Assembly: GCF_015852565.1 (NCBI RefSeq)
Contig: NC_136205.1
Location: forward strand, 3,002,707 to 3,066,706
DNA from: Branchiostoma floridae
Lineage: Eukaryota
Direction of reading: 5' to 3'
Length of the DNA: 64,000 nucleotides
Shown one piece after another: positions 14,588-64,000 of the stretch. The notes below the pieces were generated by a model. The model worked only from the letters and a program-made list of their open reading frames with translations. It made no database searches and was not told where the DNA came from. The position numbers were made by a program, and so were the translations under genes. Within the stretch, counting starts at the first letter, position 1; every line of letters starts with the position of its first letter.

Positions 14588-14749
14588 GTCTGTAGATACA
14601 TGTACAATGTAGAAAGTGGAAGTGCAAATGAAAATGAAAATGGGATGCAACAAATTTGGACAGAAAATTACACTGTCAGATAAACAGAAGAAAAATAGAT
14701 TGGCAAAAGAGAAACAGTGCAACCATTTTATCAGAGGATCCTGCTACAT

Positions 14750-31500: not shown

Positions 31501-32559
31501 CCTAGTGGCTATAGTCATTTTAAGAATGTAGATTCTGAAGTAATTTTTCACCTAGTTCAAGGCGTAGGTATTGTTTTCGTTCTTTTGTTTGTTTGTTTGT
31601 TTGTTTGAAGTGATATGTGTTGAACATTGTTTCTGCTGGCCCGGCTCCAAGTTTGTTCCCGGGATGAGTTGTAACCAGAGACTAACAGGATGCGAAGACT
31701 GATCTGGCCTACTTCAGAATGTCTTAAGAAGGCAGGAAGTGAACACATGGCCAAAAGTTGGGAACCCGAGGAGGGCATGTACCCGAGAGTGTAGAATGAA
31801 ATGTGTAAATTAAACGAGGTTGTGCAATATTTTTCAAGAAATTAACAAAATCTTTCTGCTATTCATTTGTGTGTGATGTGTACAAAAAAAGTGGAATAGA
31901 GGGTGATCACCCGAAAGTAAGTCGTTGTAATCAGATCTGTGTTCTTAACGTGTGGCTACTGTCATTTGAACACTTTAGGCATGATTTGTTGATTTGCGGA
32001 GTGGTGTACAGGGTCCTTCATTTTCTGGTACTCTCTTTACCTCAATGGCTTTCATGACTCATCGATGGACCCTCAGACGGGGTCTTGTTTATGTGTTGCC
32101 ATAGCAACGGCGCCATAAGGGAGCCAGGCATAAGAGTGCTTCCTGTCACCCTAAGAAATTATAATACTGATTAATGTATATATTTTCCTGCTTTTTTGGT
32201 ACTTCCTTATAATCATCGCTCTTTGCGGCAACATGAATGATTTCCAAAACCATATCCAGTTGCTTGTCAATGAGTAACTACTATTTGTCGTAAAAGCTAT
32301 AGATGCCCAACGTTCATCGACGTATGAAAAAATTCTCTTTTCTCCACTAGCTGGAAACAAGACTCATCTTTTGATAAGTCTAGAAGTATTTTTAAATGAA
32401 GACCTATGGTCAAGTATATATATGACTCCAGTTTATTGTATGTATTTTTTAATATGTGAATATTAGGGAAAGCTATATTTCTTGCCGGTTTACAAAAGAC
32501 TTATAATAGATTACGAAGATTTCCTCCTGACCCTTATAGAAAGTCTTTGGTCGTTGACA

Positions 32560-33050: not shown

Positions 33051-33636
33051 TTGTAAATATTATATACCATGTGTAAAATAGATTAGTCTCTTAGATTTTT
33101 AGATACTAGTAATTCATGTAGTGTTCTGTTCTGTATGTATTGTATGTACAAGTTGCCAAACACTGTATCCTCTACAGTTGTGCAATAAAGTTCTTCTTCT
33201 TCTTCTGTTCATTGTACGACCGTAGTACAATCACAATCTCGGGTCATTGTTATGATAGTCTTGCAGACATATGTCATATAGCAAACTTCAGCTGTCTTGT
33301 TAAGGACTCTGTCTTGTCTTCCTTGTCGGCGGTTGATTTTGTCACTGCTTGAAAAATTCCATTATAGCAAAATTGTAAAACGGCTATAGCTAATGACGAA
33401 TTTGACCGCGAATAGAGTCTTGACCCTTAGTTTTGATCTCTCCCTCCTCAGACCCTGCCCTGACCGTTGTGAACCAGAGCCCGCTGATGAAAATATTATA
33501 CGGCATAATTATGTACTATTGTGTGTAAGTAGCTTGATAAAAGGCTACGAGGAAAATATTTTGTATTTTTGTGAAAATATTGCCTTTCTAGTATTGGCTT
33601 TTTTTAGAAATAGATACCTGACCATTAGTCTTAACT

Positions 33637-34075
33637 AGGGGTGGGTACACCGGTACAGAAAATTCAGGTCCAGGTCCGGTTCAGGTCCAGATGATCAGGT
33701 CCAGGTCCGGACCTGAACCTGGACCTGATTCAGTATGACTCATACCAATGGTCCATTTCACTACAAAGAAATCTGTTTGGTGGAGTATTAGACTTACACT
33801 CAGCGTTTTCAAACCCTACAACGCTACCTGCACCTGTACGATTGGCTTTAAAACTTGGTAGAAATTACTATAAATTCTACTCTACTTCACCCTTGTTATT
33901 TTCTTCCACCTGCAAGCGCCAAAACGTGTGAATGCCTGTTAAAATAATCTGTTAATGTTCTAATCGGTCCAACATCCGGTCCACCTAATTTTTTCAGGTC
34001 CGGTTTTTCTGGACCGGTCCAATAAGAAAAATCGGTTTTGTACCGGTACGCTGTACCGATACCCAGCCCTAGTCT
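33637..34075 (+). mobile_element. MITE copy 3, followed by a (CAAA)n microsatellite at 34196-34250, immediately upstream of EGF-kringle gene exon 2
   Basis: Same family. The MITE plus spacer plus microsatellite unit is an inverted duplicate of 31067-31600. Confidence 0.8.
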
Positions 34076-41798: not shown

Positions 41799-41949
41799 GT
41801 AAGATTTGCATATCGAATTTGCATAAATGGGAATCGTTTTGTTGCATACATGATAATTTGACATTCTTTCCGTCGAAGGGTGTTGTCCCGAAAAACATTC
41901 CTGTATTCATTTGTCAAAGAATCAAAAGCACCGCGAATATTTTTCCATA

Positions 41950-42060
41950 ACAGTAAGAGACTACAGTGCATCGTGCTACCACGAAATTAAAACCACCGCG
42001 AAAAGTCCATTTTCCCGTTACCGCGAAATTAAATCCCCGCGAACTTAAATGCATTTACAG
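41950..42060. repeat. Dispersed repeat (...CCACCGCGAAAAGTCCATTTTCCCGTTACCGCGAAATTAAATCCCCGCGAACTTAAATGCATTTAC)
   Basis: A reverse-complement copy lies at 63840-63965 at the window end. Confidence 0.7.
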
Positions 42061-42340
42061 TACTTTGTAGAATACCATTGCCAGAATGCTGCCCATGAAG
42101 AATTCAATATTCCTTTGTCAGCATTTTATTTAAAAAGCATCATAAGCCTACAATAAATCTCTACCCCTAAGACGTTGTCAGAATTTTTCGTCTATTGCAG
42201 AAATAGACTACTGGCTAGAATACCATTGCCAGAATGCTGCCCATAAAGAATTCAATATTCCATGTCAGCATTTCTTTTAAAAAGTGAACCCTTAAGGCGT
42301 CACCAGAATTATGTATCTAAAAAAATATTTCGTATTTTGC
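42040..42340 (+). repeat. Tandem ~150 bp duplication in the intron upstream of exon 15. It carries two decayed copies of the exon-15 acceptor plus exon start (GCAGAAATAGACTACTGGCTAGAATACCATTGCCAGAATGCTGCCC...).
   Basis: Copies at about 42048-42130 and 42195-42275 resemble the authentic 42335-42400 (gcAGAAATAGACTACTGTCTGCAAAACCAGTGCCAGAACTCTGCCCGC). Confidence 0.75.
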
Positions 42341-43529: not shown

Positions 43530-45583
43530 GATGGATCATCGGGAGTGGAGATAGATAGATATAAATGTATTCAGGGCGGACATAAGTATAGTTTTTTTGG
43601 GGTGAAAACGAAAATGTACTATTAGGCTCGCCCCTGAGGCGTCGCCAAAAATACTCTGAAAAGAGTAGCGCAGAAAAAGTTACTTTAACTTTAAGGCAAA
43701 AGGGCAAACTAGAAATTAGCAACAACAGTTTGAAAATGTTGCACCTACAATATCACTGAACTAATACTGGTTATCACTCTTTGTTCTCTTTAATGTCTTA
43801 AGCTTTTTTTTCTTTTTTAAATCTACGTGTTTATATGTCATTAAGAGGGAGATGCCTAGTGCATACAAAGAAAACTCCACCCCAAAAAGAATAGTAAAAA
43901 AAGTATCAATTTCTAGACATTACAAAATCACGACGAAGGCATGCATTTTGTAAAACTTTGGCATCTGCCAGATCGTATATATAATCTAAGAAAACGAAGA
44001 AAAAAAGACGAAAAAAAAACAAAAGTATATACTATTAGATCCAGTAGACCTATTTCTTTATTTTTTTTCATCATTAGGCTCTTCCTGGACCATTGTGGTA
44101 AAACATATACGTAGCCAGTCTAAATTCCACAACATGTATTACAATTAGTAAAAATCACTAAGCCTGATTAAGTCAAGCTGACCACAATAGCTCTAGACAG
44201 GACAGATATTATTTGTCTTATTGACATGTCATCATGAATCTGACATTTGCTGGCAAGTGCTTTCAACACCCGGCGTTAGAAAAATACCTTCTTATTGTTA
44301 TTATTATTATAATTAGAATTTAAATTTAGATTTTATCCATAACATACTAGTGGTTATAACCATTATATGTTCTAGTGATGCATTGTGTTTCTGAAGTAGG
44401 AAAGAAAATTACTGAAGATAATTGATGTTGTCTCCTCAGCCAGTCCACATTTGAGATAAGATTATTTACTTGGTACGGAATATTCTAATATGGTGAAAAT
44501 GTAAGGAGCATGTATGTTTTCTTTGCAGTTATGCTGTTACTAATGAATACAAGTTACATAGACCTTTCTACCAGTATGCTAAATGTGTTTAAAAAGAGAA
44601 AAAGAAACGATGATAATAGCTTAATAAGGATGAACTATGTCGCAAAATACATTTGAATAGGTCTTAATATAGATGACATATTTAGTTAATTATATTTTCA
44701 TATATTTCTTTCTCATGATAGAGTAAGATGTCTTTCTATTAACTTTTCTCTAGGCAATAGAGACATACAAAATATTTAAAAAAAGTAACAGTTAGGAACG
44801 TCACTAGAAGTTAACATTTGAAATGCCTAATTTAAAGCTGAACAGCTGTAAATCTGTATCATGAATGTCCGTTTTTAAGCAATACTTGAACTTCTTGAAC
44901 TACATACGTGAAGTCTTAGAACAACACGTTTGATAACATCAATTAGCGTAATGACAAAGGATCTTCACTACTTTTATTACTCTAAATTTTGACCAATCAA
45001 GGACTACTCAAATCACACGTCATGTCTGCCTTTCTGTACTATTGGCTGTCGTGAAAATTACTTTATTTACTAATAGATAGAGCAACTTGCTTTCAGACTA
45101 TGATTTTCTCAATATTGAATATTTTTGAAAGATTTTTCCTTTCTTTCCTAAAGGTAATTCCAACTTACAGATATTTTTTGCACAAAGTTATGTTAGCAAC
45201 GATTTGCAAAAAACTAACACCGTTATTGTCTTTCAAAGTGCAATTCATAGAAAAAACAATAGCAACACCATATTGCATTTTGTCTTCTACAATCGCTATG
45301 ACACATTCATTCACTATACGCCTGGTATTTAGCCACGGTCATGTATCTTTCTTTACTGTAGTTTTTCTTGCTACGCTGTTGTAAGAGCAATTCTATGTTC
45401 ACATCTACAGCCTTCATTCTTGTATTCAAGTCTCGTTGATGAAATAAACATCTAACCTTTTTGATGCGTTGTCCTGACTGTTTGACTGAGCAGTTATGAA
45501 TATTAGTGAAGGATGTTCTGTTTCCGGAATTCCAGTGAAAATCAAGTATGTCCGAGAATAATGTTGTTCTCTCTTTAGTTGTC

Positions 45584-46422
45584 TCACATATATACCAGTT
45601 GGCGTGGAAAGATGGTCACAGTACGGAGCTGTACGTTCGCCACCACCAACTGTCCGTCCGGCCCCATGGCAACACCAGCTGGGTTGGTAATGTTCGCGAG
45701 GGTGCGGACAAAATCCCCACGGCTTGTATACATGTCAACCGCCTCTGGTTGCAATTTCGTCACAATGATGCGACCCAAAGTGTCCAAGCAAATACCTCGT
45801 GGAATACCCGACCGTCCTTCTAGTCCAAGTGTCCTGAATGTGACTAGCCTTGCCCCGTAGCGGTTGTAGACCTGGATTTTATTCGCGGTCGATACCAAGA
45901 TGTTTCCCTCGCTGTCTGTGGTTACATATGACACGGGGAACTTTCGTCTCTCCTCAAATTTCAGATGAAGCGAGCCGTTCGACTGGTAGATCAGAACTCC
46001 ACGCATGCTGGTCACGATGACTTTGTGGTCAGTCACGCCAACTGCAATGCCAGGATTCACGGACACGAAGTTGACGTCAAACGTGAACAGAGGCTGCCCA
46101 TTGCGTCTGTACTGCACCACATGTGCTTTAACATTAATATTCTTCCTCTTCCCCACTACCCACAAATGCCCCTCTCCGTCCACGGCGACATCGCTTGGTT
46201 GCATTTTCTTCACCGCGACCCCAGGGACGATTGTTCGGAAGAAGCGGCGATAGGCTCCGCTTATGTTGTAGACATGGACCCTTCTCTTCTGGAAATCAGT
46301 CACGAAGATCTCGTTGTCAGCAGAGACAGCCACTCCACGGTGACTTCGAATTTGGTTTAGTGAGCCTCCTCCCGTCCCAACCGGGACAACCATCAGTGTT
46401 CGGTCATTAATGTCATGGGAAC
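45584..46422 (-). CDS. NPxY/NHL gene copy A, NHL-repeat beta-propeller exon (six NHL repeats, ...FVTDFQKRRVHVYN...GHLWVVGKR...VIVTSM...GNILVST...RIIVT...GQLVVAN...). Terminal exon.
   Basis: Acceptor tttcactgcAG at 46424-23 (phase 1). 269+ aa are open to the stop. NHL signatures match the TRIM-NHL/teneurin-type propeller. Confidence 0.8.
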
Positions 46423-47995
46423 CTGCAGTGAAAGGAAGAGGATGCGATCAATGATAACCTGGCCCTGGTACGAACGTTCGAACAAAGCCTGTTACAGTTA
46501 GCAAAACTAAGAAAATTTTTTCATTCGGGCAACCAGCACGACCGGATGATGATGAAAGAAATCTTAGTAATTCCCAGGAAAGAAATAATGGCTTTTTTAT
46601 GTAAACTATGCAAGTTAGGTCCGCATTTGCATATCCTGTGTCTGTTTATGTTTATGTTTATCTGCCAGAACTTACACATGTTGCATGTATAAAAGTCCTT
46701 TAGTGGGGAAAATAATAGATGGGATAATTTCCTAAATGATTATCCAAATTTATTTTTGTGTACCTCTCCCTAAGCTACTTACGTGCCAAATATTATGGAA
46801 ATTTGTTCAATTATCTCTGCATTTGCATATACTGTGTTAAACCTGCCAGAAATTACACGTTACATGTATCTAAGTCCTTCACTATGGAAAATAATAGATG
46901 AGAGGATGTCCTGATTAATCATTCAAATTTATTTGTCAGCATCTCTTCATCAGCTACCTGGGTTCCTTTGTCACCTTTTGTTCAAGTATCTCCTTGGAAA
47001 GAATAAAAACGCCCCAGCGGTTCCAGAGCAAGCTCCAGAGGTGCCCGAACCTACACTTCTTATTATATATTGACAAAAACTATCTTCCACTAAAAATCAA
47101 GACCAAAGCATGTCCAAGACAAAAGATTACCATGTGACGTGCTTGAGATTGACGACAGCGTTGGCGTTGTTATCCCAAAGGGACCACTGGCAGTCGTGAC
47201 CTAGTAAGAGAATACGAATGGTCTAATAAACGTGTGATCTAGTCAGTGTGTTTGTTTGTTTGTTTGTCTTTCTGTGCGTTCGAAGTTTTGCCGATATTCT
47301 AGCAGCATGAAAGGGGGCATGGAAGAGTTGCAGCATGGAAGGGGGAAGTGGTGTAATAGGATACTTGCAGAATTGAAAATATGGATAGGCTGCAAAACCA
47401 TGTAGCACATTACATTGTTTTGTTTGTTAAGAGACCAGATTCTGGTCTTCAGTAGCTTCAGATAGATCGTTTCCGTTAAGGGTATGAAAAAGTGATCTGT
47501 AGAAATATGAAATACGTGATCTATAACCAATAGGAAGCGTGACAAGCATTCTCTCCCACCGTTAAGTCCTCAGGGGCCTCTGACGTCATTGTCGTCCTGC
47601 CAGAAGGACAACAGATGGGGCGATCCGGGGTATGGATCGGTCTTGATTTCTGCTGTCGATGGGAGACATTGTCATAAAGTCATTGAGTCACACACTAAAG
47701 TGGTCATCTCATGAGACTGCGCCAAATTGCGCGAGGAAATTACGTAAAATGTAAAAAAAAAATCCTTTGTGGTTATACGAACGTGCGACGCAATTTCGTA
47801 TGAAGCCCATATAAGAAGATTATTGAAAAGATATTATTAAATGTATAAACTGCCCTGTTTCACGCCGCTTGCGCCTATTTTGCGAACATTTAGCAAAGGA
47901 AACTATCAGATGAAAGAGTTGGAAGAATACCAGCTGCAGGCTAGAAGTAAGAAGAGAAAGCCAAAAACAGACGGTACACGAGATCGAGAGGGTAC

Positions 47996-48120
47996 CATTG
48001 GAGCATTCGGCGTGCTGTTGTTGATGAATGCAAACTTTAAACTTCCACCGATGACCAATGACAACAGGGTAACAGCTGTACATGCGAAGACAGCAACGTA
48101 CTCCCACCGCAATTTCAAAA
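47996..48120 (-). CDS. NPxY/NHL gene copy A, candidate TM exon (VLKLRWEYVAVFACTAVTLLSLVIGGSLKFAFINNSTPNAPM)
   Basis: Acceptor cctttacAG and donor ATG|GTACCC. Phase 1-in, but phase 0-out, which does not match the NHL exon (needs 1). Usage is uncertain and possibly isoform-specific. Confidence 0.45.
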
Positions 48121-48516
48121 CTGTAAAGGCATATTTTAGGACACCGTAATACCGTCCAAAGGAAAAAATCATGATAATAGAAGTAGCATTCTTAGTGTTA
48201 GTAAACACTAAGAAAAAGGCCGCATATATGAACATTTTCTGTAAAACAGATTACGTTCTAGCTTAATGAGCAGAAAACCAACCATTGAAACTTGAAAATG
48301 ATGTTTTGAAGTGATGTTTTACTTGTAGAATTCTGTCAGTTTGTTTGATCAAACCAAAGGCACCGTGCGAGAATAGGATAAGATATGTTACATGTTACAT
48401 AGGATGCTACATTTACGTCAGGTGGAAACAAAAGTGAGTCCATTCATTTGAAAAATAAGATCGCTACCCATTACTTGAAGCCTAAGCCATGACAAGGTCA
48501 CAAAAGACAATCTTAC

Positions 48517-49732
48517 CACCAACGTTCTGTTGGGGACCGTTTTTCACGTGCATTGGTGCCTGATTTGCCTGAACGGTGCCATGTGTGATGGAGCTGCATC
48601 TTTCTGACCTGGTGGAGGTATCGTCATCCCCACCTGTGTATGCGACTGCGTAAGGTTCAATGTGGACATCGTCAGGGCTGACATCTTGCGTTCGTTCGTT
48701 CTTGGTCACGTTTCTTCTAGCTTCCATGTCTTCATCGTTCTCATACCTAACCGCATATGGTTCGATGTCGGCATTGCCAGGGATACTGCTTTGTATTTGT
48801 CCTCTCCCTATCGCATTATTACGTCTGGTAACGATGCCATCATTGTCATCATCTGTCTGGTATCTAACAGCATACGGAATGATGTTAAAACTCTCACCAG
48901 TGTCTGTTTGCCAGGAGGCAGATTTACCCGCTTCGGTGTCCCGACTTGCTTGTGGCTCAATGTCTGTATCCGCTTTGGGGTTCAGATCTTCCGCCGTTGT
49001 TTCGACAGTTCCTGATGATGTTGCAGTTCCTGATGTTATGAGGGTTGTATCCGACTCTGATGCAGGTAATGAAGGGTCAGGGGCGTACATGGGATTATGG
49101 TCGCATGATTTTGGCTGGTACCCCGAGGTGCAGTTTAGTGCGTTTTGCCCGTACATCGGATTGGGGGTTTCAGTGTCTGCGACATTTTGCGCGTACATCT
49201 GATTCCGGGCTTGGTCATTCTGGACGCATGCCGTAAGTGGATAGAGTACATTAGAGCGATGTAGAGTATTAACCGTGTTTCCGTCATTTCTAACAAGATC
49301 GATCTTAGCATCATTCTTAGTTGCATCGCATCCTTCAATGTTTGTTAAGGTGTTATCGGTGTTGTTCTGTTCAACGTAAGATTCCGTTGTTTCACTCTCT
49401 TCTGAAACTGTCTTGAAACACACCATGTGATCCTGACAAATGTAAGTAACTTTATGTGGTACAATATGGGCATCACCATGGTTACAATCGACAGTCGGGG
49501 CGATTTCATCAATAGCATCACCCTCTGTGGGGCTGCTCTCACCATCAATGTAGTCGTCGTCGCCATCTTTTTTACATCTGAGATCATATGGCCTGGTGAA
49601 GAGATCGCCATCATTGTCAGCCTGGCTGTAAGCAAGGTCAGTAGTTGTAGAATTCAGACCTGCTGGAGTCGTCTCGTCTTGCTGTAAATCTCCCGTGTTG
49701 TCACCCACTGAGACGTTGTCATCCTGTTGCAT
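48517..49732 (-). CDS. NPxY/NHL gene copy A, exon 1: acidic S/T/D-rich N-terminal region. It has 3x N(P/Q)MY motifs and 3x (I/E)PYAV(R/A)Y repeats.
   Basis: ATG at 49732 (ttatgcaacagG context). The 416-aa ORF is open to the donor G|GTAAGA at 48516-15 (phase 1). No signal peptide. Confidence 0.7.
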
Positions 49733-50339
49733 AAAGTCAACGATGTTGTAAAAAATGCCTTAACGCGCTACTCCCTTACAGAAAGCAAGTCACAAGCGAT
49801 CACAAATGAACCTTTATATGGATTAACGAATTTCAATGCCTTCTTGGTAATAATGTTCTGATGGGTATAAAGAACATTACTATCTATTTCTGATTTCGAA
49901 ATTGTAGGGATTCTTTTGGTTAGATTCCTGCCATACATATTTGCGACAATAATGGTCATTCTAAAGTTTCACAAAACCCTTTAAAATTCCTTCAACAATA
50001 AATGCTATTATATTTTGAAATTCTAATTCGTTCTTACAGCTTTTCTATTCCGTAACATCGCCATAGCCTATAGAATGTGGCCTTTTTGCAAATTTGCGCT
50101 ATTCCTCTCAGACATATACAGTATACGCATATTACATTGTCTATGAAAAATGTTAACATTCTTTTCAGCCAAACATTACAAGATCTATCAGCATAAAACT
50201 TAGTCACAATGAAAACAGTCAGACAATTAGGATTCTCTTTAGATCTTTCATGCAACCAATTAAAGAAAAAAAAAATTAACTATTTTTTCTCTTCCAGTAC
50301 AATCATTCCTCGTCCAATTTTTTCACGAAAAAATCAATT

Positions 50340-50420
50340 CCCGAAAAGAAATTTTACATGAATATATATATATATATGGGTTTAAGCATTTCCACGGGCA
50401 GGATTTTGCCAAGCAAAATA

Positions 50421-50470
<50 letters not shown>
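50340..50470. repeat. (TA)n microsatellite (~100 bp) followed by (ATTT)n
   Basis: tatatatata... run. Confidence 0.95.
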
Positions 50471-50476
<6 letters not shown>

Positions 50477-50994
50477 TTATTTATGACTGAATTCTAGAAA
50501 CACACGGCGCATTGGTCAGTACAGACAATTTCAGTAATCACAGGCGTTTGGCCTACGTGTGGTCTTAGATTGCCTCCGTTTTAATTCGTTTCTTTTCTTT
50601 TATTTGTTATTCTTATATGAATAATTTAAAGAGAGACATATTAGTCTGACCATTCTAATTCTTAACAATCTGTATAATATCTGAAAAAAAAATAACCATA
50701 GACAATCTGATATAATGAAATTATACTGTAATATGTCTGTGCAGAATTGCGCACACTAACAACTAGGTCACACGTTGCCTGCTATGGTGATGCTTCTGAA
50801 TACAATAGGTGTTAGAACCTGGGATGAATGATTCTGCTTGCATATAATGTCATCCTGTATTATATGGACTCATAAAAGTCAAGGGTAACAGTGGTAGATA
50901 CATATAAGGGATTATAAAGCTATTGTACACGGCTAGACCTAACAAAGTTTCTCCAAACTAGTTTGAACAAGAGTTCGGAGACCTCACACCTCCA

Positions 50995-51335
50995 TGAAAT
51001 ATTCTGATTATGCAAATAACTTTCACATTTGCATAATTCATGCTTGCTTATGTACACCTTTCACTAATTTACACAGGTCACAGTGTTGACAGCCCAATCA
51101 TTTACTACACGTACTAAGAAGAATTAGGATACCTTCAGTTAGGATAATTAATTATGCAAATTAGTGACTTATTTGCATAATTAGTATCTGCTTAACTTCG
51201 GCCTGCCACGAACTACATATGTAACATGTATTTGAGTCCTATATTGGAAAACACTGTAAATATAGATTTTCCTCATTAAGTATGCAAATTAAGTTCAAAT
51301 TTGCATAATTGCACTTCATTATGTACATCTCTGCC
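50995..51335. repeat. Three tandem ~110-130 bp repeats. Each carries an inverted pair of octamer motifs (TATGCAAAT[T/A]A...ATTTGCATAATT).
   Basis: Units at about 51010-51060, 51148-51190 and 51272-51320. ATGCAAAT is the canonical POU/Oct-binding octamer. Located in the unique spacer between the divergent paralogs. Confidence 0.6.
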
Positions 51336-51689
51336 ACAGGTACCTGCATACCAAATAGCATGGAAATCCATTATTCCTATGTTCCATTATGCTCCTTGGA
51401 AGATTTCAACAAAAATGCTCCTGCAGTTCCAGAGCAAGCCGCTAGGGGGCTCAAACATACACCACTTCTTCCTTACATCAAAAGCTATCTGCCACCAAGA
51501 AATCAAGACCATAGCATGTCCGGTTAAAAAGATACAAAAAATGGAAGTTCTGCTGCAGTACCAAGGTCACACACCAGGAGGCCCAAAATTGACCTTGACC
51601 TTCGTCTTCCCCACCCCTACCCACATACAAAATATCATCGTAGTCCATCAAGAGGTTCTCAAGTTATGATGTCCACAAATATCTGGAAA

Positions 51690-51755
51690 CAAAAACACAC
51701 AGTGTCACACACAGACACACAGACAGGCACACAGACAGACACACTCAAAACTATA
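51690..51755. repeat. (CACAGA/CA)n microsatellite
   Basis: cacacagacacacagacaggcacacagacagacacac. Confidence 0.9.
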
Positions 51756-52889
51756 CCTCCATTTTTTCATGGAGGTAACTATTATGTACTGAATTGAAAA
51801 TTTTTATGTTGGTACTTTCTCAGCTAAAAGGCGTCACTTAAAACCATCTCTTTGCTTATTCACGCATGACTTCAGGTATTCTACCTGATATTTTTGATAT
51901 TAGTTATTACTTTGGCTGAATAAAAACACACAGCCGGGGTATCCTTCTAGCCGAATTCTACTAAGGACTAACTGAGCAGCATGTACAAATTGAAAATAGT
52001 ATTCATCATTTACACAACCTTCCTTTAAATGTTCAGTACACGTTTCGACGGCCATCTTTCGCCTTCATCAGTACAAGATTTGGTACTGAAAGAGCTATGT
52101 TTGGGGTACCCGAAACGAGGAACAACACGACGTGAAGTTCCTCAAAACACGTCATTCCACACGAAACGTGCCATTTCTCAAACGCCGCTATCTTTGCACG
52201 GGTGCGGAGTTACTGTCGCGTGACGGTAACTGCACGCGTGTAAAGATAGCGTCGCTTGAAGAATAGCACGTTTCGTGCCGATTGACGAGTTTTGAGCAAC
52301 TTCACGCAAACTCCGAACGCGTGCATTACCTCGCCCCGTGCTGACTTCGCACGCTTGCTATTCCTCATATCACGGTCCCCCTATATACCTGGAAAAAGGC
52401 GACAGATGGTCGTCGAAATGTTTACTGAAGATGTAAAGACAGGTTGTGTAAAGGAAGAGGACTTTGTTCAATTGATCTACCAACCTGATGAAACTAAATT
52501 TTTATTTACGGAAGCATATACAGATGGTTACAATGCACATGTAAAGGTGTACACACGTCACAATGCTTAGATTTTATAACCTAGTTGAAGGAACTAATGT
52601 AAGATGGTAGGAAATAGTGTTGGATTTAGCAAAGATGTCAGAATGAAAAGAGTAAAACAAATCAGACGTTTGTACTCACAGTGGACGAAATTGGTGCATG
52701 CTCAGGCTCCATGTTGAGTTTTGATCGGCTTCAGTTCCTCACATCATTGCTCAAGTAGTCATGTAAGATGAACAAAGAAAATGTTGGTAAAAATAAAACT
52801 AAGTAGAGCTGGACTAGCCGCACATGGCAATATCCATTGACGATGAATAGGTCATCCGACAGGATGAAAAGAATAGAGAAGAAGAATAG

Positions 52890-53130
52890 TACGCCAAAAA
52901 GCAGTTACTCAAGCAACTGGATTTGTTTGAAACAATATCCGTTGTTTTTCGCCAGTGACACTGGAGGAAAAACCCTCTTTAACAAGATTTCTCCAGTGTC
53001 GCTGAAGAAAAACAACGGATGTTGTTTAAAACGTCTGACCGTTTCGAAAATCATATCCAGTTGCCCGAGCAACTGCTTTTTGGCGTATCTTATTACCTGG
53101 ATGTCTAACCTTCATCGACATTAGAAGACT
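52890..53130. mobile_element. Complete MITE of a family with TIR AATGTCGATGAAGGTTAGACATCCAGGTAATAAGATACGCCAAAAAGCAGTTGCTCGGGCAACTGGATATG
   Basis: Terminal inverted repeats at 52895-52960 and 53045-53125. Partial copies of the family occur at ~7300-7400, 8150-8260, 29375-29470, 32200-32320, 36330-36410 and 37230-37350. Confidence 0.7.
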
Positions 53131-53689
53131 AGTCCTAAATAGAATGTGATGCCACAATGTCCATTCCTGCAAAAACATACTTAGCATCACTTGCACACGC
53201 ACCTACTTCCATGGCGCTCGACCAGGGTTGTAGCCAGCCTGAAATCATTTTCAGTCCCCTTGATTTTTAATGGGAATCCTATCGAGCACCGAAGGCATGG
53301 CGTGACGTTGCGCGTCATTTCTAGGGGGTCTGGGTCCCAGAAAATTTTTAAATCAAGACCCTCTGAAACACTATTTCCTGCATTTTGAGGTGCAAATTTT
53401 GCTTGTAGGCTAAGCTGTTCAATGTCATCTGTTTTGGTGAGGAAGAACACATGGGTTTCTTTTTTTTAATATCTTTACTTATCAATTTTTGTCTGTCCCT
53501 GGGGACTGAATGGGGAAATTTGTTTTCAGTCCCCAGCTGCAAAATTCCTTCAAAGGACTGAAGGACAGATGCTGGCTACAACCCTGCTCTCGACTAAGCG
53601 AACGATTAGACACCAGCCTTCCAATTCTTTCAGTATCCTTTACACCACTTACGACTTACTGAACACATTTTCGTTTTGCAACACACACA

Positions 53690-53835
53690 CAACGGTAGAG
53701 CGTTCGGCTCGGAACCTAGAGGTTCTGAGTTCGATTCCCGCCGTGCCACGCCCCGACGTTGTGCCCTTGGGAAAGGCACTTTACACGACATTCCTCACTT
53801 CACCCAGGTGTATAAATGGGTACTTTCTGTCTGTA
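53690..53835. mobile_element. tRNA-derived SINE copy (GGTTCTGAGTTCGATTCCCGCCGTGCC...GGCACTTTACACGACATTCCTCACTTCACCCAGGTGTATAAATGGGTAC)
   Basis: Same family. Located in the spacer of the palindromic duplication. Confidence 0.65.
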
Positions 53836-56631
53836 CCGTGTATGTGGCACTGTTAATATAAGTTACCAAAACTTGAATGCAGTGCCACATCGTCCCAGTC
53901 TGTACAAAAAGCAAAATACAAAAAAAAAAACAAAAAAAAACAAGACAAAGAGACAGACGTACCAACTGAGAATACATCCGATAACAACCGTAACCGTCGC
54001 TCCAGGAATGTGATGTAAGACCCAGACCCTTCTGAAACTGACGCAGACGTATTTTGTACTGATTCAAATCCTATCAAGGAGAATCCTATTAAAACAATGG
54101 GACGTACCATTTTTTCAAGGGGGTGTTGCACAGAACTTTTTACATTGCGTATTCATTAATGACATTTGCATAAGTAAACAATAACAATAAATGAGGGAAG
54201 ACGCCCACATGGATTATGCGAAGTTTTCCTCTTTTGAATCAGCTTACCAAAATACTGTATATATATGTGGTATAAAACAACCAATCAAGAAACAACACAG
54301 ATATATGGTCAGGTCTTACATAAGTCAGCCAGCAACACCCCCTTGAAAAAATGGTACATCTCATGTTTTCAATTGGACTCCCTCGATACGACTTTACCCA
54401 GAACAGAAATACGTCTGCGTCAGTTTCAGAAGGCGTCTCGGTCCAACATCACACCATCCCTGGAGCAACCGTTGATACCTCCGTGAATTTGGATGTATTT
54501 TAGTCAGTTGGTGTGTCTGTCTCTTTATATTTTGCATCCACAGTTGTGTGTATGTTGCAAAACGGAAGAAGTATAAGTCAGAAGTGGTGAAAAAGGATAC
54601 TTAGAGAATTGGATGTATTGCACGGCTGATTTACAATCGTCCTCTTAGTTGAAAGCCATGGAAGAGCGTGCGTAAAAGTGAAACATGTCTATGCTGGATC
54701 ATGGAATGGATATGGAAGCATCACAGTTTATTTGATATTCTTCTTCTTTCTTCCTTTTATCCTGTCGGATCTTATCCTCCATAGAAGGCTCCCTGTGGCC
54801 TTTTTTTTGTTGCTCATAATACACTTTTGCTGACCATTTCGTTTTGTACTGGGTCGCTGATTGCCGGTCGTAGCTGAAATCCGGCAATCAGCTTCCCAGT
54901 ACAAAAAGAAATGGCCAGCAAAATTGTATTATGAGCCAAAAAAGGCCCCAGAGAGCCTTCTATGGAGGCTAGTTGGATCTGTTCATCATCAATGGACATT
55001 GCCATGTGCGGCTAGTCTGGCTCTACTTATTTTCTATTATTTTACCAACATTTTCTTTGTTTGCCCTAAATGAATACTGGAGCAATATATAACATTGATG
55101 TAGTCAGTAAGGATGTGAGGGACCAAAATCAAGATGGATCCTAAGGATGCACCATTTCCGTCCACTGTGAGTACAAACCGTGTTTTGACTCTTTTCATTC
55201 TGACATCTTTGCTAGAGCCATCACTATTTCCTTATCATCTGATTATCAAGTATTCTGCCTTTACATGTGTCTTGTAATTATTTGAATATTGTATGCTATT
55301 CAGTCACTAGGGCTAGCTCTTTGTAGCATGATTCGCACGGAATAATCCTGACTGTATTGGCATTTTGTTTATTTAGCTAAACTAATAAATCAAATAACAA
55401 ATAGTTGAACGCATGAAGTCATATGCAAATTATGCAAATGCATTTTAAGTAACGCCCAGTGCTCTATACAATTTACCAAAGAAAAAGTTTGGATCATTTT
55501 TTTTTCAATCAGATGAGAAAGTACTAAGCTCATACAATTTCAATTTCAGTTCACGGCATACGGCATAATAGTTCAAACAAGTCTTGAGAAATTTTGTTCA
55601 GGACAGGATGGCCCGAATAATTGGTCAGGATGGCCCGAAATTAGGCCATTATTTTGTTGGGAAAAATCCTATCTGTGGAAATGCTTAAACGCACTAAAAT
55701 TCTAAAAAGAATCGAATTACGAGCGTATCATTTATACAGCGTTCTAACACCTATCGTATTTTGAAGCAACACCATAGCAGGCAACATGTGACCTAGTTGT
55801 AAGTGTGCGCAGTTCTGCACAGACATATTACATCATGTTAGATTGTCTATGAGTATTTTTTTAGAAAAAAAAACATATTAAAAGATCAATCGTTACATAG
55901 ATTGGTCAAAATTAGAATAGTCAGACTAATATGGCTGTCTTTGAATTATTCATACAAGAACAATAAATAAAAAAATAAATTAATAAGGAGGCAATCTAGG
56001 ACCATAAATAGGCCAAATGCCTTTGATTACGGAAATTGTCTGTACGGACCAATGCCCCATGTGTTTCTAGAATTCATTCATATATATTCTAAAATGTAAT
56101 TCCGTTTTGTGGAATTGTTTTTTCTTCTTCTGAAAATTGGAAAAGGAATTATTGTAATGGAAAAGAACTAAATAATCTAATCTGGGTTTCTTTTACTTTG
56201 TTGTATGAATAATTAAAAAAGAATCATTTTTGTCTGGCTGTTTTAATTTTGACTAATTTGTATACAGATTGACAATGTAATCTTTTTGTCTAAATATTCA
56301 TAGACAATGTAATATGATAATACTGTAATTTGTCTATCCAGAATTGCGTAAAGTTGAGAATATGCCACATTTCATCGGCTATGGTGATTTTATGGAATAG
56401 AATAGCTGTTAGAACGAATTAGAAAATATAAATATAGAATACAACACGGTGTATTCCGTATCACCCGAGGTACCAGCCAGACCGCGGGTCGGATCGCACG
56501 ACGGCCGAGAAAACCACTGTTTTGATGCGAAATGCGCCAGAAGTTGAACAAATTTGTTGCCCTCGAAAAAAAAGCGTTGCAAGAGTAATGTTCCAACGTC
56601 CGAATCAGGTATTCGAACTGTCGATGGTATG

Positions 56632-57642
56632 TCACTATGATTCGTCCATTACTTGAATATGCTGACATTGTTTGGTGTGGCCTTCTCGGCAAAGATTGTG
56701 ATCTTCTTGAGTCTGTCCAGATGGCCGCGGCACGAGTTTGTACCGGAGCCATGAGAGGCACTAAACATGAGAGCTTGTTAGCCGAGGTTGCATGGGACAC
56801 ACTAGCGGACAGAAGGAAAAAGCACCAGTTGATTCAGTTTTGGAAAATTATGAATGGTCTCGCACCACTGTACTTACATAATATTATCCCTCCACGTATC
56901 TGTGATACGGTCCCTTACAACCTTCGCGCAAACCAAAACCTTACTTCCATTGCCTGTAAAACTGAAAAGTATAAAAGATCCTTCCTACCTTCAACTGTTC
57001 ACTTGTGGAATGAACTGCCTACGAATGCTAAAGCCGTCCTTTCGATCAACACTTTCAAAAAAGAGCTGGACTCACTATTCAACAAGCCGACAAAATACTC
57101 CCATTTCTCTTATGGCCAAGGTCGTTCCGCAGTTCATCTTACAAGGCTCCGTCTAAACTTCAGTCAGTTAAACTACCATCTATTTCAACACCATTGTATT
57201 GATTATCCTACATGTAAATGCGGCTATCATTGTGAAACAACCGAACATTATCTACTACACTGCACACTCTATACTAGCCAAAGAAGTTCTTTGTTATCGG
57301 CTGTCTCAAATATTATAGTAGACCTAAAGCACCTCAACGACACTACTTTATGTACTTTACTGTTATCAGGATCAACATCTCTCTCACATCAACAGAACTG
57401 TAACATTTTTGATCTTGTCATTACCTATATCCATTGTACAGGCAGGTTCTCCTAATTGATTCAGCACCAACTTGTCTTGTTTAAATTTATTTTTCTGTTA
57501 TCCATTTTGTACTTATGTATGTAATGTCGTTTACTATTCTTGTTTTATGCGTATGTTTCTTGAGTAGAAGGCTTAATATAAGCAATTTGTGCTTTCCGCC
57601 TCATACTCGCAAAATATATGTGAATAAAATAAAATAAATAAA
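56632..57642 (+). mobile_element. 5'-truncated non-LTR retrotransposon (LINE). It keeps the ORF2 C-terminal tail with a CCHC motif and an (AAATAA)n 3' end, flanked by ~18 bp target-site duplications.
   Basis: ORF 56637-57455 translates to the conserved LINE ORF2 tail (LLEYADIVWCG...ESVQMAAARVCTGAMRGT...LADRRKKHQLIQFWKIMNG...CKCGYHCETTEHYLLHC). The TSDs are AACTGTCGATGGTATGTC at 56613-56630 and AACTGTCGATGGTACGTC at 57643-57660. Confidence 0.8.
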
Positions 57643-58313
57643 CTGTCGATGGTACGTCCACTCGAAACAGTTCGATTTATTCGAATGGAGCCCGTGTGAT
57701 AAGCCCGGGCCGTACGGAAAGTTATCACCCGGTCCGGAACACCCGTATCGAACGTTTTTGCGTCACAGGTATGACATAATAGTATTTATTGCTGAAAAAA
57801 GTCGAACAATATCTCCCACCCTATTTAGTTAATGGTTGTCTTAAGAACTATTGTTCTCGCAAACAGTTTGTTAGGCCTAAGCTTATAAGAAAAAAGGGTG
57901 ACATTACCGACCATGCCAGTAAAACCTGCCAACCCTAACCTTTTGGAGGGATAAAACACTGTAAAAGGACATAAAAAAACTTCCGTCACCTTATTTCTGC
58001 TGCAATAGACAAGTGTGTTTGAATTGATGTATGTCTAAAATGTGATGTTGATAATGGCAGTGCTCTCGTGCATTCCAGTTTTACATTATCAAAATTTCTC
58101 ATAGGATCACTTGGACAGAAATCTAAACAAAGCCCTACAATTTCAAAAACAGAAATACATAGTTATGCCCTTTATACCTGTCACAACATTTTCGCTAAGA
58201 AGGCATCAACATCTGTTGATTCATATAAAGGATGTTCATTTGTGACGATAATTGACATCGTAAGAGTTTTGCTTTCTGTAAGGAAGTAGCGTGTAAATTA
58301 TTTTACAACATCG

Positions 58314-59565
58314 TTGACGTTATACAACCAGGATGACCACATCTCACTAGAGGAAAACACAGGCGATCTACAGCAAGACGAGACGACTCCAGCAGGTCTG
58401 AATTCTGGAAATACTGAACCTGCTTCCAGCCAGGCTGACAATGATGGCGATCTCTTCACCAGGCCATATGATCTCAGATGTACCGAAGATGGCAAAGACG
58501 ACTACATTGATGATGAGAGCAGTCCCACAGAAGGTGATGCTGCGGATGAAATCGCACCGACTGTCGATTGTAACCATGGTGATGCCCATATTGTGCCATA
58601 CAAAGTTACTGACACGTGCCAGGATCACATGGTGTGCTTGAAGACAGTTTCAGAAGAGAGTGAAATAACGGAATCTTGCGTTGAACATAACAACACTGAT
58701 AACACCTTCACAAACATGGATGAATGTGACCCAACTAAGAGTGATGCTAAGATCGATACTGTCGTAAATAACGGAACCACGGTTAATACTCCACACTGCT
58801 CTAATGTACTCTATCCACTAACGACATGCGTCACGAATGTCCAAGCCCGGAATCAGATGTACACGCAAAATGCCGCAAACTCTGAAAACCCCAATCCGAT
58901 GTACGCGCAAAACGCCATAAACTGTGCCTCGGTGTACAAGCCAAAAGCCTGCGACCCTAATCCGATGTACGCCCCTGACCTTCCATTACATGCAACAGAG
59001 TCGGATACAACCCTCATAACATCAGGAACTGCAACATCATCAGGAACTGTCGAAACAACCGCGGAAGATCTTAACCCCAAAGCGGATACAGACATTGAGG
59101 CACAAGCAAGTCGGGATACCGAAGCTGGTAAATCTGCCTCCTGGCAAACAGACACTGGTGAGTGTTTCAACATCACGCCGTATGCTGTTAGATACCAGAC
59201 AGATGATGACAATGATGGCATCGTTACCAGAAGTAATAATGAGACAAGTAGAGGACAAACACAAAGCAGTATCCCTGGCAATGTCGACATCGAACCATAT
59301 GCGGTTAGGTATGAGAACGATGAAGACCTTGCAGCTAGAAGAAACGCAGCCAAGAACGAACGAACGCAAGATGTCAGCCCTGACGATGTCCACATTGAAC
59401 CGTACGCAGTCGCATACACGGGCGGGGATGACGATACCTCCACCAGGTCAGAAAGATGCAGCTCCACCACACATGGCACCGTTCTGGGGGGCAACAGTGA
59501 TGCGCGTGGCGTTAGAGATCAGGCACCGATGCATGTGCAAAACGGCCCCCAACAAAACTTTGGAG
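58314..59565 (+). CDS. NPxY/NHL gene copy B, exon 1 (acidic N-terminal region with NPMY x2, NQMY and PYAV(R/A)Y x3). The initiator ATG seen in copy A is mutated here (ATG to ATA plus a 1-nt indel).
   Basis: The ORF is open over 58314-59565 to donor G|GTAAGA, but it has no in-frame ATG until residue ~100. It is about 87% identical to copy A. Confidence 0.55.
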
Positions 59566-59812
59566 GTAAGATTGTCTATTGTGGCCATGTGCATATAACG
59601 GCTTAGACTTTGCGTAATGGACATCTATCTTACTTGCTCTAATGAAAGTGTCAACTTTTGTCAAAACCTGATGTGAATATAACAAAGCAAAAAATTTAAT
59701 ATCTGAGGCCTTTTGCTTTACTAGCACTGTAATCTTTAATACTACTTCTTTATCATTTTGATTTTTTTTTCCTTTGGATGTTATTATGGTGTCCTAAAAT
59801 ATGCTTTTACAG

Positions 59813-59937
59813 GGTTGCAAGTTCGATGGAAGTACGTCGCTGTCCTCATATGCACAGCTGCTGCCCTGTTGTCATTGGTCATTGGAGGAAGTTTAAGTTT
59901 CGCATTCATCAACAACAACACGCCGAATTCTCCTATG
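59813..59937 (+). CDS. NPxY/NHL gene copy B, candidate TM exon (LQVRWKYVAVLICTAAALLSLVIGGSLSFAFINNNTPNSPM)
   Basis: Acceptor gcttttacAG and donor ATG|GTACGC. Same phase problem as copy A. Confidence 0.45.
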
Positions 59938-61628
59938 GTACGCTTTCGTATACCGTTTTTTTTTTTGCTTTGTCTTCTTATCTTTAGCCTGGTATTCTTC
60001 CTCTTCTGGCGCACCTTCTTTCCGCTGATAGTTTCCTTTGTTAAATTTTCTTAAGAAGCGACGAGCGTTATCTCACTGGACTGCGCCAGATTGCACAAAG
60101 CTTTCACAAAAATTGTGCAAACCGACCCAAATTGGCACTGATCCGTGTAATGTGTAGTCTGAAATCGTGATTTTGTTAGACATTGCATTTACAAAATAGG
60201 CGCAAAGCAGCGCGAAACAGTGTAGTTTATACATTTAATGATATATAGATCTGCAAGTTCCAATAACCTGCTTATACGGGCTTCATATGCAATTGCGTCG
60301 CACATCAGCGAAACCACAAGAGAAAATTGGCATGTCGACCTCGCGCATGTTGGCATAGTCTTGTGAGATAACCACTTTAGTAATGACTTAAGTATGTGCC
60401 ATAGTCTTGTGAGATAACCACTTTAGTATGTGGCTCATCAAATTCATGACAATGTCTTCCATCGAGAGCAGAAATCAAGACCAATCCATACCTCGGATCG
60501 TCCCATCTGTTGTACTTCTGGCCATGGGTGGACGACAAAACCTGAGCTGACGTCAATAGCCCCTGAGGACTTTAAGGTAAGAAGAATGCTTAACAAGCTT
60601 CTTTACTTTTCAGCCATACTTCCAGTTTCCGATAGGTAGATGAAAGCACATATTTCATACTGTAAGCGTTTTGTCATGTGAAGTTAAGCAAACAAAATAA
60701 TGTAAGGTGCTACGCACTCATACAAAGATGTTGCAGCCATCAAGACATTGAATTGTCAGAAAGCTGTTTCAAATTCCTTGGAACTTCTGCATCACTTAAT
60801 CTTTTATTTGTTTTAGCAAACCGATAAGATGTCGAAGGATTATGACATTACCTTCTGATTTATCTATCTTATTTACTTATAATATTTGTTACATAAAAAA
60901 ACTTAACTCAAAGTGGTACCAAAGTCTACATACTGCAACATTGGACAAGAGTCTAACCATATTTTCAATTCTCTAAGTATCTGTTTACATCACTTCATGC
61001 TGTCACTTGGGAATATCAGCACGACTTCGAACGCACAGAAACTGATTAGAATATCATTGTTTTCACGCGTTAATGAGTTCATTCGTATTCTCTAACTAGA
61101 GCACGACTGCCAGTGATCCTTTTGGGGCAACAACGCCAACACTCTCGCCAATCTCAAGTACATCACACGGTAATAGTTTGTCTTGGACATGCTATGGTTT
61201 TGAATTTTGGTCAAGATAGCCTTTCATGGTTAGAAAAAGGAGAATAGACTTGTGCACCTTCTGAGTTTGCTCTGTAACCGAATATGATTCAAATTTAAAG
61301 GAGATGATATTCAGCATGCAGGCAGCTAATATAAGGAAAAGATGAACACAATAAAATACAAATCACGTAGATTAGGACTTAGTTGGATAATTGAATAGGA
61401 AATTAACTACCCCTCTTGTTTTTCCTAAAAAAAGACTTTAATATATTTAACGTATGTAATTTCTGAGAGGTTTAACAGTAGGCAGACACACGATATGCAA
61501 CTGCGGACTTAACTTGTATAATTCCTACAAAAATGACCTACTTTTAAAATTTTCTTTACGCAATTGTGACAGGCCTTTTTGTACCAGACCAAGTTATCAT
61601 TGATCGAATCCTCTTCCTTTTACTGTAG

Positions 61629-62479
61629 TTTCTCATGACAATAATGACAACTCAGAAAAGGTTGTCGTCGTCGGAAAGGAAGGAAGCACAATAATTGAAG
61701 GTCGAAGTCACCGTGGAGTGGCTGTCTCTGCTGACAACGAGATCTTCGTGACTGATTTCCAGAAGAGAAGGGTCCATGTCTACAACATAAGCGGAGCCTA
61801 TCGCCGCTTCTTCCGAACAGTCGTCCCTGGGGTCGCGGTGAGGAAAATGCAACCAAGCGATGTCGCCCTGGACGGAGAGGGGCATTTGTGGGTAGTGGGG
61901 AAGAGGAAGAATATTAATAAGAAAGCACATGTGGTGCAGTACAGACGCAATGGGCAGCCTCTGTTCACGTTTGACGTCAACTTCGTGTCCGTGAATCCTG
62001 GCATTGCATTTGACGCGACTGACCACAAAGTCATCGTGACCAGTATGAGTGGAGTTCTGATCTACCAGTCGAACGGCTCGCTGCATCTGAGATTTGAGGA
62101 GAGACGAAAGTTCCCAGTGTCATACGTAACCACAGACAGCGAGGGAAACATCTTTGTCTCGACCCCGGGTGAAATCCAGGTCTATAATCGCTATGGGGCA
62201 AGGCTATTCACATTCAGGGCACGTGGACTACAAAAAAGATGGTCGGGTGTTTCCCGGGGAATTTGCTTGGACACTTTGGGCCGCATCATTGTGACGAAAT
62301 TGCAACCAGAGGCGGTTGACATGTATACAAGCCGTGGGGGTTTTGTCCGCACCATCGCGAACATTACCAACCCAGCTGGTGTTGCCATGGGGCCGGACGG
62401 ACAGTTGGTGGTGGCGAACGTACAGCTCCGTACTGTGACCATCTTTCCACGCCAACTGGTATATCTGTCAGACAACTAA
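61629..62479 (+). CDS. NPxY/NHL gene copy B, NHL-repeat beta-propeller terminal exon
   Basis: Acceptor ttttactgtAG at 61627-28 (phase 1). Open to TAA at 62477-79. About 93% aa identity to copy A. Confidence 0.8.
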
Positions 62480-64000
62480 AGAGCAAAACGCCAAATGGTA
62501 CATTAATCAGACAATTAAAGAGCAAAAGAGTGAACAAACTCCTTCTCGGACATACGTGATCTTCACTAAAAACAGAACATTCTTCATTAATTTTCATAGC
62601 TACTCAGTCACACAGCCAGGACAGCGCATCAAAAATGTTTGATGTTCATTTGATTAAAGAGACTTAAATAAAAGAATGAAGGCTGTAGATGTGAACATAG
62701 AACTGTTCTTACAACAGCGTAGCAATAAAAGAATATACAAGAAAGAAAAAAATATCGGTAAAACGACAGATACATCACCTTGGCTCAAATACCATGATGC
62801 TTAGTGCAGTGAATGTATCTGAGTGATTGTAGAAAACAAAATGTAGTATGGTGTTGTTATTGGGGTTACAACAATTTTCTTCAATCAATGACTGTTTTGT
62901 TAAGGTACAGTACATACCTCCTAAATTTTCGATGTATAACAGCACATCTTCGTCACGGGGAATGACCTAGTCTCAATCTCGCGAGAAAACGAGACTAGGC
63001 CAGGCTTGCGTGGATCATCTCTCCCCGCCTCCTTGCGGAGAAGGGGTAGGTACGTAGGACTTGGGCAGCTCCCAACCCATTGGTTGAAGAAAATTGTTGT
63101 AACTGTATGCATACGTTACTGATGAACCTCTTCAAAGGTGTTGCTATTGTTTTTCTATGAATTATACTTTGAAAGTCGATAATGTTCGTAGCTTTAAGTA
63201 GATCTCTGCTGACATAACTTTGTGTAAAAAAATACAATGCGTAGTGCAATGAATGTATCCGAGTGATAGTAGGAAACAAAATGCAATATGGTGTTGTTAT
63301 TTTTCTATGAATTGCATTTTGAAAGAATGAAACAATGGTGTTAGCTTTAAGCAGTGTTTTTCTAACATAACTTTGTGCAAAAATATCAAGCTAGAGTTAT
63401 ATTCGGGAAAGAAAAGACACAGCTTTCCAAAATGTTTAATTTTGAGACAATCAGTATTCAATATTGAGAAAATATTATAGTTTCTGTATCTATTAGTAAA
63501 TAAACTCAAATTTCACGGCCGCCAATGTTAAAAAAAGGCAGACATGACGTGTGATTTGAGTAGTCTGTGATTGGTCGCACTTCAGTGTAAAACACTTTAT
63601 TGTGATAATATGTAATAGGTTCTGCTAATTGATGTTTTTAAACTGGTCAGTCTAAGGCTAAATTCAAAGATTGCTTAAAACTGACATTGACAGAAAATAG
63701 ATGTCAAGTGAAACTGTAAAATAATGTTATGAAATTAATCTAATAAAAAATCCAACAAAATCTTCCGCATATGTGTATCTGTATATCTGGTATAACCGCT
63801 CTTCGGCGCATCATCAACAGCAGCTTTGCAGCAGCTGGTTATACTGTAAATGCATTTAAGTTCGCGGGGATTTAATTTCGCGGTAGCTATAGCGGGAAAA
63901 GGGACTTTTCGCGGTGGTTTTAAGTTCGCGGTAGCACCATGCACTGTAGTCTCCTACTGCCATGGATAAATATTCGCGGTGGTATCAAATTAAAGTGGCC

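Follow-up and report, generated by a model that had tools for sequence, protein, structure and literature searches.

A stretch of amphioxus DNA of 64,000 nucleotides (contig NC_136205.1, positions 3,002,707 to 3,066,706 of the forward strand; hereafter the window) carries at 44912-63659 a palindrome of 18.7 kb with one gene in each arm, here called A and B. We consider it highly probable that this palindrome is a genuine and old head-to-head inverted duplication of a five-exon gene plus its upstream region, with patchy gene conversion between the arms at a later time. When the NHL, acidic and transmembrane open reading frames (ORFs) of these genes were used as tblastn queries, exactly two gene copies were found in the 64 kb, one on the minus strand at 45.6-49.7 kb (A) and the other on the plus strand at 58.3-62.5 kb (B). 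The two copies point apart, as had been claimed in a first-pass annotation of this DNA.

The inverted arrangement was established by an inverted-repeat scan and by blastn of the window against itself. These showed that the segment 44912-50832 is colinear with, and reverse-complementary to, 63659-55727, the best segments having E=0, and that the chain of matches continues inwards through five further colinear blocks: 52602-52853 with 55240-54976, 52854-52888 with 54770-54736, 53123-53222 with 54744-54648, 53586-53699 with 54656-54537, and 53947-54129 with 54526-54332. The left arm (44912-54129, minus strand) therefore holds gene A and its upstream region in about 9.2 kb, the right arm (54332-63659, plus strand) holds gene B and its upstream region in about 9.3 kb, and only a central loop of 202 bp (54130-54331) lies between the innermost matches; the left arm ends in ...ttcaagggggtgttgc at 54129 and the right arm resumes with gcaacacccccttgaa... 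at 54332. The first-pass annotation had described two inverted arms and had called them an inverted segmental duplication, and the colinear chain bears it out on both points, the match spanning introns, 5' and 3' flanks and the upstream region and not the exons alone. However, its arms of 6-8 kb were too short, and its "unique" spacer of 4.8 kb is not unique, since it contains the five inner matches. Nor are the arms contiguous stretches of high identity: noncoding identity ranges from 59 to 84% with many indels, and about 59% of the left arm aligns, as judged by a tally of BLAST segments.

By class of sequence, arm-to-arm identity was 79-82% in the 5' flanks, 75-84% in the 3' flanks, 59-75% (with many indels) in the introns and 82-92% in the exons. 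These values were taken from segment-wise alignments, a global MAFFT alignment of the outer arms having misplaced a B-specific stretch of about 1.7 kb. The alignable blocks of the left arm are broken by arm-specific insertions, for example at 50833-52601 and 52889-53585, and dispersed repeats lie within the unmatched stretches. The 3' flank of gene B has two private features, a 39-nt tandem duplication that starts at the coding end (62449-62527) and an insertion of about 370 bp (62862-63230) between 65-bp direct repeats (62797-62861 and 63237-63301). A candidate extension of the outer arms (41929-42062 with 63981-63842) was discarded as a dispersed repeat that is also found twice in a B. floridae locus carrying a paralog (L001). 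None of the ORFs in the spacer had a Pfam match, and neither an Rfam family nor a tRNA was found in 41-64 kb. At its inner end, arm B shows a local inverted repeat (55740-55960 and 56198-56416); related sequence is repeated three times in tandem, 300-750 bp ahead of the B. floridae paralog (L001 9241-9697), occurs singly upstream of a paralog in B. lanceolatum, and may represent an upstream element associated with the gene family or a miniature inverted-repeat transposable element.

The inner blocks reach beyond this window. In B. lanceolatum they are present, in identical order, in the 1.7 kb that precede a single-copy paralog (L002), which argues that they are not a chance pair of transposons, and the innermost one also lies upstream of the B. 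floridae paralog. The fact that these blocks are shared with the upstream regions of paralogs indicates that the duplicated unit was the gene with its upstream region, joined head-to-head. The related loci themselves lack an inverted repeat: those of B. floridae (L001) and B. lanceolatum (L002) hold single genes, and that of B. belcheri (L004, CM033050.1) holds a tandem pair, two same-strand genes of the family at 4661-7819 and 9974-14345, beside a matrix-metalloprotease-like gene. The B. belcheri pair suggests that the family grows by ordinary tandem duplication as well, and it makes conceivable a history in which a head-to-tail duplication came first and the inversion of one unit then gave the head-to-head pair. 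We think this sequence of events unlikely, because the arms are symmetric down to a loop of 202 bp and one inversion breakpoint would have had to fall almost exactly at the junction of the units; besides, a survey of animal gene duplicates found that most inverted pairs had been created inverted from the start (PMC3194840). The most economical origin would be an inverted duplication made in one step, by fold-back or template switching, with a very short spacer.

Each arm contains one gene of five exons. In gene A (minus strand), exon 1 (48517-49732) starts with an ATG at 49732, encodes an acidic N-terminal tail and ends at the phase 1 donor G|GTAAGA; exon 2 (47996-48120, 125 nt) encodes a single transmembrane helix (YVAVFACTAVTLLSLVIGGSL); exon 3 (47560-47652, 93 nt, phase 0-0) a Cys-Cys juxtamembrane linker; exon 4 (47131-47200, 70 nt, phase 0-1) a stalk rich in Ser, Thr and Pro; and exon 5 (45584-46422) a six-bladed NHL propeller and the stop codon. 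Gene B (plus strand) follows the same plan, with exon 1 at 58332-59565 (an open frame with no ATG at the position of that of A, the first in-frame Met being at 58629), exon 2 with the transmembrane helix at 59813-59937, exon 3 at 60469-60576 (108 nt, with in-frame indels of +6 and +9 nt relative to A), the stalk exon 4 at 61100-61169 (70 nt), and exon 5 with the propeller and stop at 61629-62479, its end being three residues longer (..LVYLSDN). The small exons 3 and 4 were recovered inside what had been taken for intron 2 by tblastn with other family members: exon 3, with conserved AG/GT, by P0014, P0015 and P0024, and exon 4, whose phases fit its neighbours, by P0003 (62.5% identity over 24 residues). 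With them in place the intron phases 1, 0, 0, 1 fit, both copies keep every AG/GT, and a single terminal stop closes each frame, of 780 codons for A and of 795 for B. A three-exon model joins an exon 2 donor in phase 0 to an NHL acceptor in phase 1, which are incompatible, and a weak alternative donor was dropped once the two conserved small exons had been found.

Of the earlier description of a complete three-exon gene per arm, then, the single gene per arm stands and the number of exons does not; the word complete applies to A and is not demonstrated for B. Coding divergence, put at about 7-13% in that description, was measured as 10.0% in exon 1, 17.6% in exon 2 and 7.8% in exon 5, and the coding indels (27, 6+9 and 3 nt) are all multiples of three, in agreement with the in-frame indels reported there. 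The largest of these, in the LGGNSDARGVRD region, was correctly noticed and had been read as an insertion in B. The corresponding segment, LGG[NS]SDARGV, is present in both B. floridae proteins closest to A and B (P0001 and P0002, see below), so that the 27-nt difference is better explained as a deletion in A. The older B. floridae models of these two proteins join exon 1 straight to exon 5 and so lack the membrane helix; the five-exon models correct them in this respect.

In the proteins predicted from these models, an acidic N-terminal tail would be followed by a single membrane helix, a Cys-Cys linker, a stalk rich in Ser and Thr and, at the C terminus, a six-bladed NHL propeller. The exon 1 product of A contains 73 Asp and Glu against 29 Lys and Arg, two NPxY motifs (residues 191 and 213), three PYAV motifs (286, 325 and 360) and one YxN; the membrane helix follows at 413-433, and then the NHL region. 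Pfam recognised the NHL repeats at 44.6 bits in A and 40.2 bits in B (cutoff 20). An AlphaFold2 model of exon 5 was predicted as a six-bladed propeller of 24 strands, with a mean predicted local distance difference test (pLDDT) of 87 and a predicted template modelling (pTM) score of 0.87, and the best solved structures retrieved by Foldseek were the NHL domains of TRIM2, TRIM3, Thin, TRIM71 and Brat, at a TM score of about 0.8 and 20-22% identity. Searches of the exon 1 proteins against Pfam (E≤0.1) gave no RING, B-box or coiled coil; those of the gene proteins gave only NHL and SGL-type matches, and no EGF repeats, YD-repeat shell or toxin-like domain. A type II topology, with the tail in the cytosol and the propeller outside the cell, is likely, judging from the lack of a signal peptide, the cytosolic type of the motifs, the Cys-Cys linker with its Ser/Thr stalk, and four N-x-S/T sequons after the helix. 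If true, such a topology would suit a surface receptor for binding or recognition that signals via phosphotyrosine adaptors.

The best homologues of A and B are two proteins of the B. floridae v1 genome, P0001 (C3Y4X0, BRAFLDRAFT_73993), which is A-like and 85% identical to A, and P0002 (C3Y4W9, BRAFLDRAFT_73992), which is B-like and 88% identical to B. Their consecutive accessions and locus tags indicate that the two genes are neighbours. In an alignment of the four proteins, 37 sites grouped A with P0001 and B with P0002, 7 sites grouped A with B and P0001 with P0002, and 5 were crossed, a pattern which implies that the duplication predates the split of this genome from the B. floridae v1 genome. 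The dispersed repeats shared with other loci suggest B. floridae or a close relative as the source of the DNA. The exon 1 part of P0001 has five PYAV units, compared to three in A, and an extra copy of an acidic segment of about 28 residues, and, judging from these sequences, the number of presumed cytoplasmic repeats differs from genome to genome.

These comparisons bear on whether the palindrome is real. Heterozygosity is high in amphioxus genomes, and assemblies of such genomes can contain false duplications, so that two haplotypes, or a collapsed repeat, could in principle have been joined in inverted orientation where truly a single copy exists. However, there are dozens of indels between the arms and a divergence of 8-40%, which is far above amphioxus allelic divergence, and the 37 A- or B-specific residues recur in two separate neighbouring genes of an independent assembly. 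Furthermore, arm B alone carries, at 56627-57642 (plus strand), a 5'-truncated fragment of a non-long-terminal-repeat retrotransposon (LINE) with intact target-site duplications. This fragment has an A-rich 3' tail, is flanked by a perfect 9-bp duplication, CTGTCGATG, at 56618-56626 and 57643-57651, and is 99.7% identical over 1017 bp to an ENA metagenome contig (ERZ27265261:k141_2817807) with ORFs for an apurinic/apyrimidinic (APE) endonuclease and a reverse transcriptase; its own ORF had no Pfam match, and it was identified via these homologues. Of the roughly 1.6 kb by which the upstream region of gene B is longer, about 1.0 kb is due to this fragment. The insertion is very young, and the LINE family appears to have been active in recent times. 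A mis-joined assembly is therefore extremely unlikely in our opinion, and the evidence at hand effectively excludes a merging of haplotypes even without long reads.

To date the duplication we used Nei-Gojobori estimates of synonymous divergence (dS) and of its ratio to nonsynonymous divergence (dN/dS), and Kimura two-parameter distances (K2P) for introns. Exon 1 gave a dS of 0.168 (dN/dS 0.55), exons 2-4 pooled a dS of 0.34 (dN/dS 0.46) and exon 5 a dS of 0.112 (dN/dS 0.67); introns 1, 2 and 4 gave a K2P of 0.31-0.39, which the dS of the small exons equals. The duplication is old, with a neutral K≈0.3. Overall dN/dS was 0.56, below 1 at p=6e-5. After the duplication, neutral sequence in the arms diverged to this level and each arm collected private insertions and deletions, the LINE in arm B being a very recent one; occasional conversion between the arms would have acted later on exons 1 and 5.

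The evidence for conversion comes from these two long exons. Their dS is patchy and two to three times below that of the small exons and introns (P=0.004 against the small exons, P=2e-10 against the introns). In exon 5 the differences are clustered, leaving identical runs of 118, 110 and 87 nt; by permutation, the longest run had P=0.002 and the sum of the top three was reached in 0 of 20,000 trials. For exon 1, P was 0.11 in the longest-run test and 0.015 when the three longest runs were summed, only the latter result being significant. Two candidate tracts can be delimited in exon 5 (minus strand): 45590-45760 at its 3' end, paired with 62294-62464 in B, which includes the 110-nt identical run and sites of the A=B type, and 46232-46349, the run of 118 identical nucleotides, paired with 61702-61819. 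At this 3' end A and B share TKLQPEAV...ANV, and P0001 and P0002 share TKVLPAR[IV]...ANA; in the protein-level comparison, 5 of the 7 sites uniting A with B lie within the final 80 columns (P=1e-5), and the 37 sites of the orthology type lie elsewhere. Clustered identity, depressed dS and the A=B tract together suggest patchy gene conversion, as had been anticipated from the palindrome in the first-pass annotation. Synonymous constraint or local variation in mutation rate could also lower dS in patches; only two DNA sequences were compared, and in exon 1 the signal is confined to the summed runs. We judge this explanation decidedly unlikely, because in exon 5 the identical runs of 87-118 nt adjoin clusters of differences, because the dS of the small exons of the same gene matches intron divergence, and because constraint does not predict five A=B sites set against residues shared by P0001 and P0002. 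Occasional, patchy conversion that partly homogenised exons 1 and 5 would be the simplest reading of the sequences. The locus also illustrates how the age of a duplicate can be underestimated when its long exons have undergone conversion.

Copy B differs from A at its start. The ATG of A (49732) stands directly before the motif CAACAG-GATGAC, and the B. lanceolatum paralog has an ATG at the corresponding place. In B this codon is replaced by ATA, with one inserted nucleotide after it. The frame of B contains a TAG 14 codons ahead of the residues that the copies first share (DDH); no ATG stands between the two, and no Met occurs in frame before residue 100. The ancestral start codon is gone from copy B, which either uses another start or was disabled very recently. 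It is accordingly possible, if doubtful, that B is a recently inactivated pseudogene and the locus one functional gene with a decaying inverted copy. The lost ATG, kept in A and in B. lanceolatum, and the upstream TAG favour this idea, as does the finding of no close relative of A or B among the proteins of recent Branchiostoma annotations. Nevertheless, the 795 codons of B are open over five exons with intact splice sites and in-frame indels only, its identity to its B. floridae counterpart is higher than that of A to its own (88% against 85%), and a start could be provided by the Met at residue 100 or by a conserved upstream block with ATG|GT.

This block flanks the loop on both sides, at 54040-54128 (minus strand) and 54332-54420 (plus strand), and is found about 1.7 kb upstream of the paralogs in B. 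lanceolatum (L002 8275-8400) and B. floridae (L001 about 8250-8400). It holds an invariant AAAATG followed by GTAC (GCAC in L001) and is a candidate for a promoter element, for a 5' exon of one codon, or for an upstream ATG in the 5' untranslated region. A one-codon exon spliced in phase 0 to the CAG|GAT of exon 1 would give B a start; we hold its probability to be low, since the in-exon ATG of A is conserved in the B. lanceolatum paralog.

Several points weigh against this overall reading of the locus. Besides the altered start of B just described, the exon boundaries, transcription starts and expression of both copies are predictions. The adjacency of P0001 and P0002 is taken from accessions and tags, and the two proteins may be orthologues or alleles of A and B or a paralogous pair. 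The signal of concerted evolution comes from the proteins of one other genome and from one tract, and, in a comparison of two DNA sequences, local mutation rate or synonymous constraint may be part of the reason for the low and patchy dS. The NHL exon taken alone is not significantly below a dN/dS of 1 (p=0.13). Finally, the charge bias around the membrane helix, on which the type II topology leans together with the logic of the motifs, is weak, the charge being +1 to +2 on the N-terminal side of the helix and 0 to +1 on the C-terminal side.

A and B belong to what appears from database searches to be a large family restricted to amphioxus. We found 73 homologues, all of them from Branchiostoma, and the N-terminal domain had 11 relatives among 1.84 billion representative proteins, 11 of 11 again from Branchiostoma; the lineage-specific, evolving family proposed earlier is supported by these counts. 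The PYAV motif is nearly invariant across the family, and in roughly half of the 73 homologues the PYAV repeats and the NHL region are separated by a membrane helix. Both A and B show the layout by which we defined the family, namely NPxY/PYAV repeats, then one membrane helix, then NHL. Several members have been automatically named "TRIM3" or "TRIM2-like" in databases though they lack the TRIM module, and these names are misleading. No description of an amphioxus membrane-NHL family was found in the literature searched. With at least 70 members, all from amphioxus, the family is a candidate for surface recognition, and it deserves attention more than the palindrome itself, which matters little as a genome feature. 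The locus is a well-resolved example of how such a lineage-specific, receptor-like family grows via inverted duplication.

A more specific proposal is that A and B form a co-evolving, highly polymorphic pair of recognition receptors, for pathogens or for self and non-self, with a shared bidirectional promoter in the loop and with conversion shuffling variants of the propeller. It was prompted by three observations: the identity of only 85-88% to the adjacent v1 genes, despite the sharing of dispersed repeats with the B. floridae locus L001, which is far greater than with the loci of the two other species; the dN/dS of the propeller exon, not significantly below 1; and the AAAATG|GTAC block adjoining the loop on both sides. 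We regard it as very improbable.

Outside the palindrome, a repeat of about 420 bp is present in three copies of 94-95% identity, at 26471-26886 (plus), 31072-31507 (minus) and 33634-34071 (plus), two of which are inverted and 2.1 kb apart; weaker copies exist in the B. floridae locus L001, and the copies probably represent a transposon family or the terminal repeats of one. At about 9900-17000 (plus strand) there is a large gene rich in Ser, Thr and Gln whose product contains LxxLL motifs. Its ORF of 687 residues (10938-13001) had a sub-threshold Pfam match to Nuclear receptor coactivator (E=0.005) and no match in a homology search; the gene looks like a coactivator of the NCOA/SRC type.

Among known systems, the TRIM-NHL proteins (TRIM2, TRIM3, TRIM71/LIN-41, Brat and Thin) share with A and B the C-terminal six-bladed NHL propeller. 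A and B, in contrast, lack RING, B-box and coiled coil, and have instead an acidic NPxY/PYAV tail, a membrane helix and a propeller predicted to be extracellular. Teneurins are type II membrane proteins whose N-terminal domain is intracellular and whose ectodomain includes an NHL propeller. The likeness of A and B to them is in predicted topology only, since A and B have no EGF repeats, YD shell or toxin-like domain, A measures 780 residues against more than 2500, and the NHL region resembles propellers of the TRIM type. A and B are neither TRIM-NHL ligases nor teneurins.

As to the arrangement of the genes, the palindromes of primate sex chromosomes also have inverted arms with paralogous genes around a spacer and undergo arm-to-arm conversion. 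Their arms are more than 99.9% identical over the whole length through frequent conversion, whereas at the A/B locus noncoding identity is 59-84%, about 59% of the arm aligns, and conversion seems to be confined to parts of two exons. A closer parallel is provided by the head-to-head duplogs of animals, in which a multi-exon gene with its introns and flanks is likewise repeated a few kb away and interlocus conversion takes place (PMC3194840). Among linked gene duplicates of animals, about 20-40% are inverted pairs (PMC3194840), and nothing essential sets the A/B pair apart from them; what is particular here is that the host is a cephalochordate and that the arms can be traced to a very short loop. 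The palindrome is an ordinary inverted segmental duplication of the kind common in animals, a product of gene-family growth and no new genome feature.

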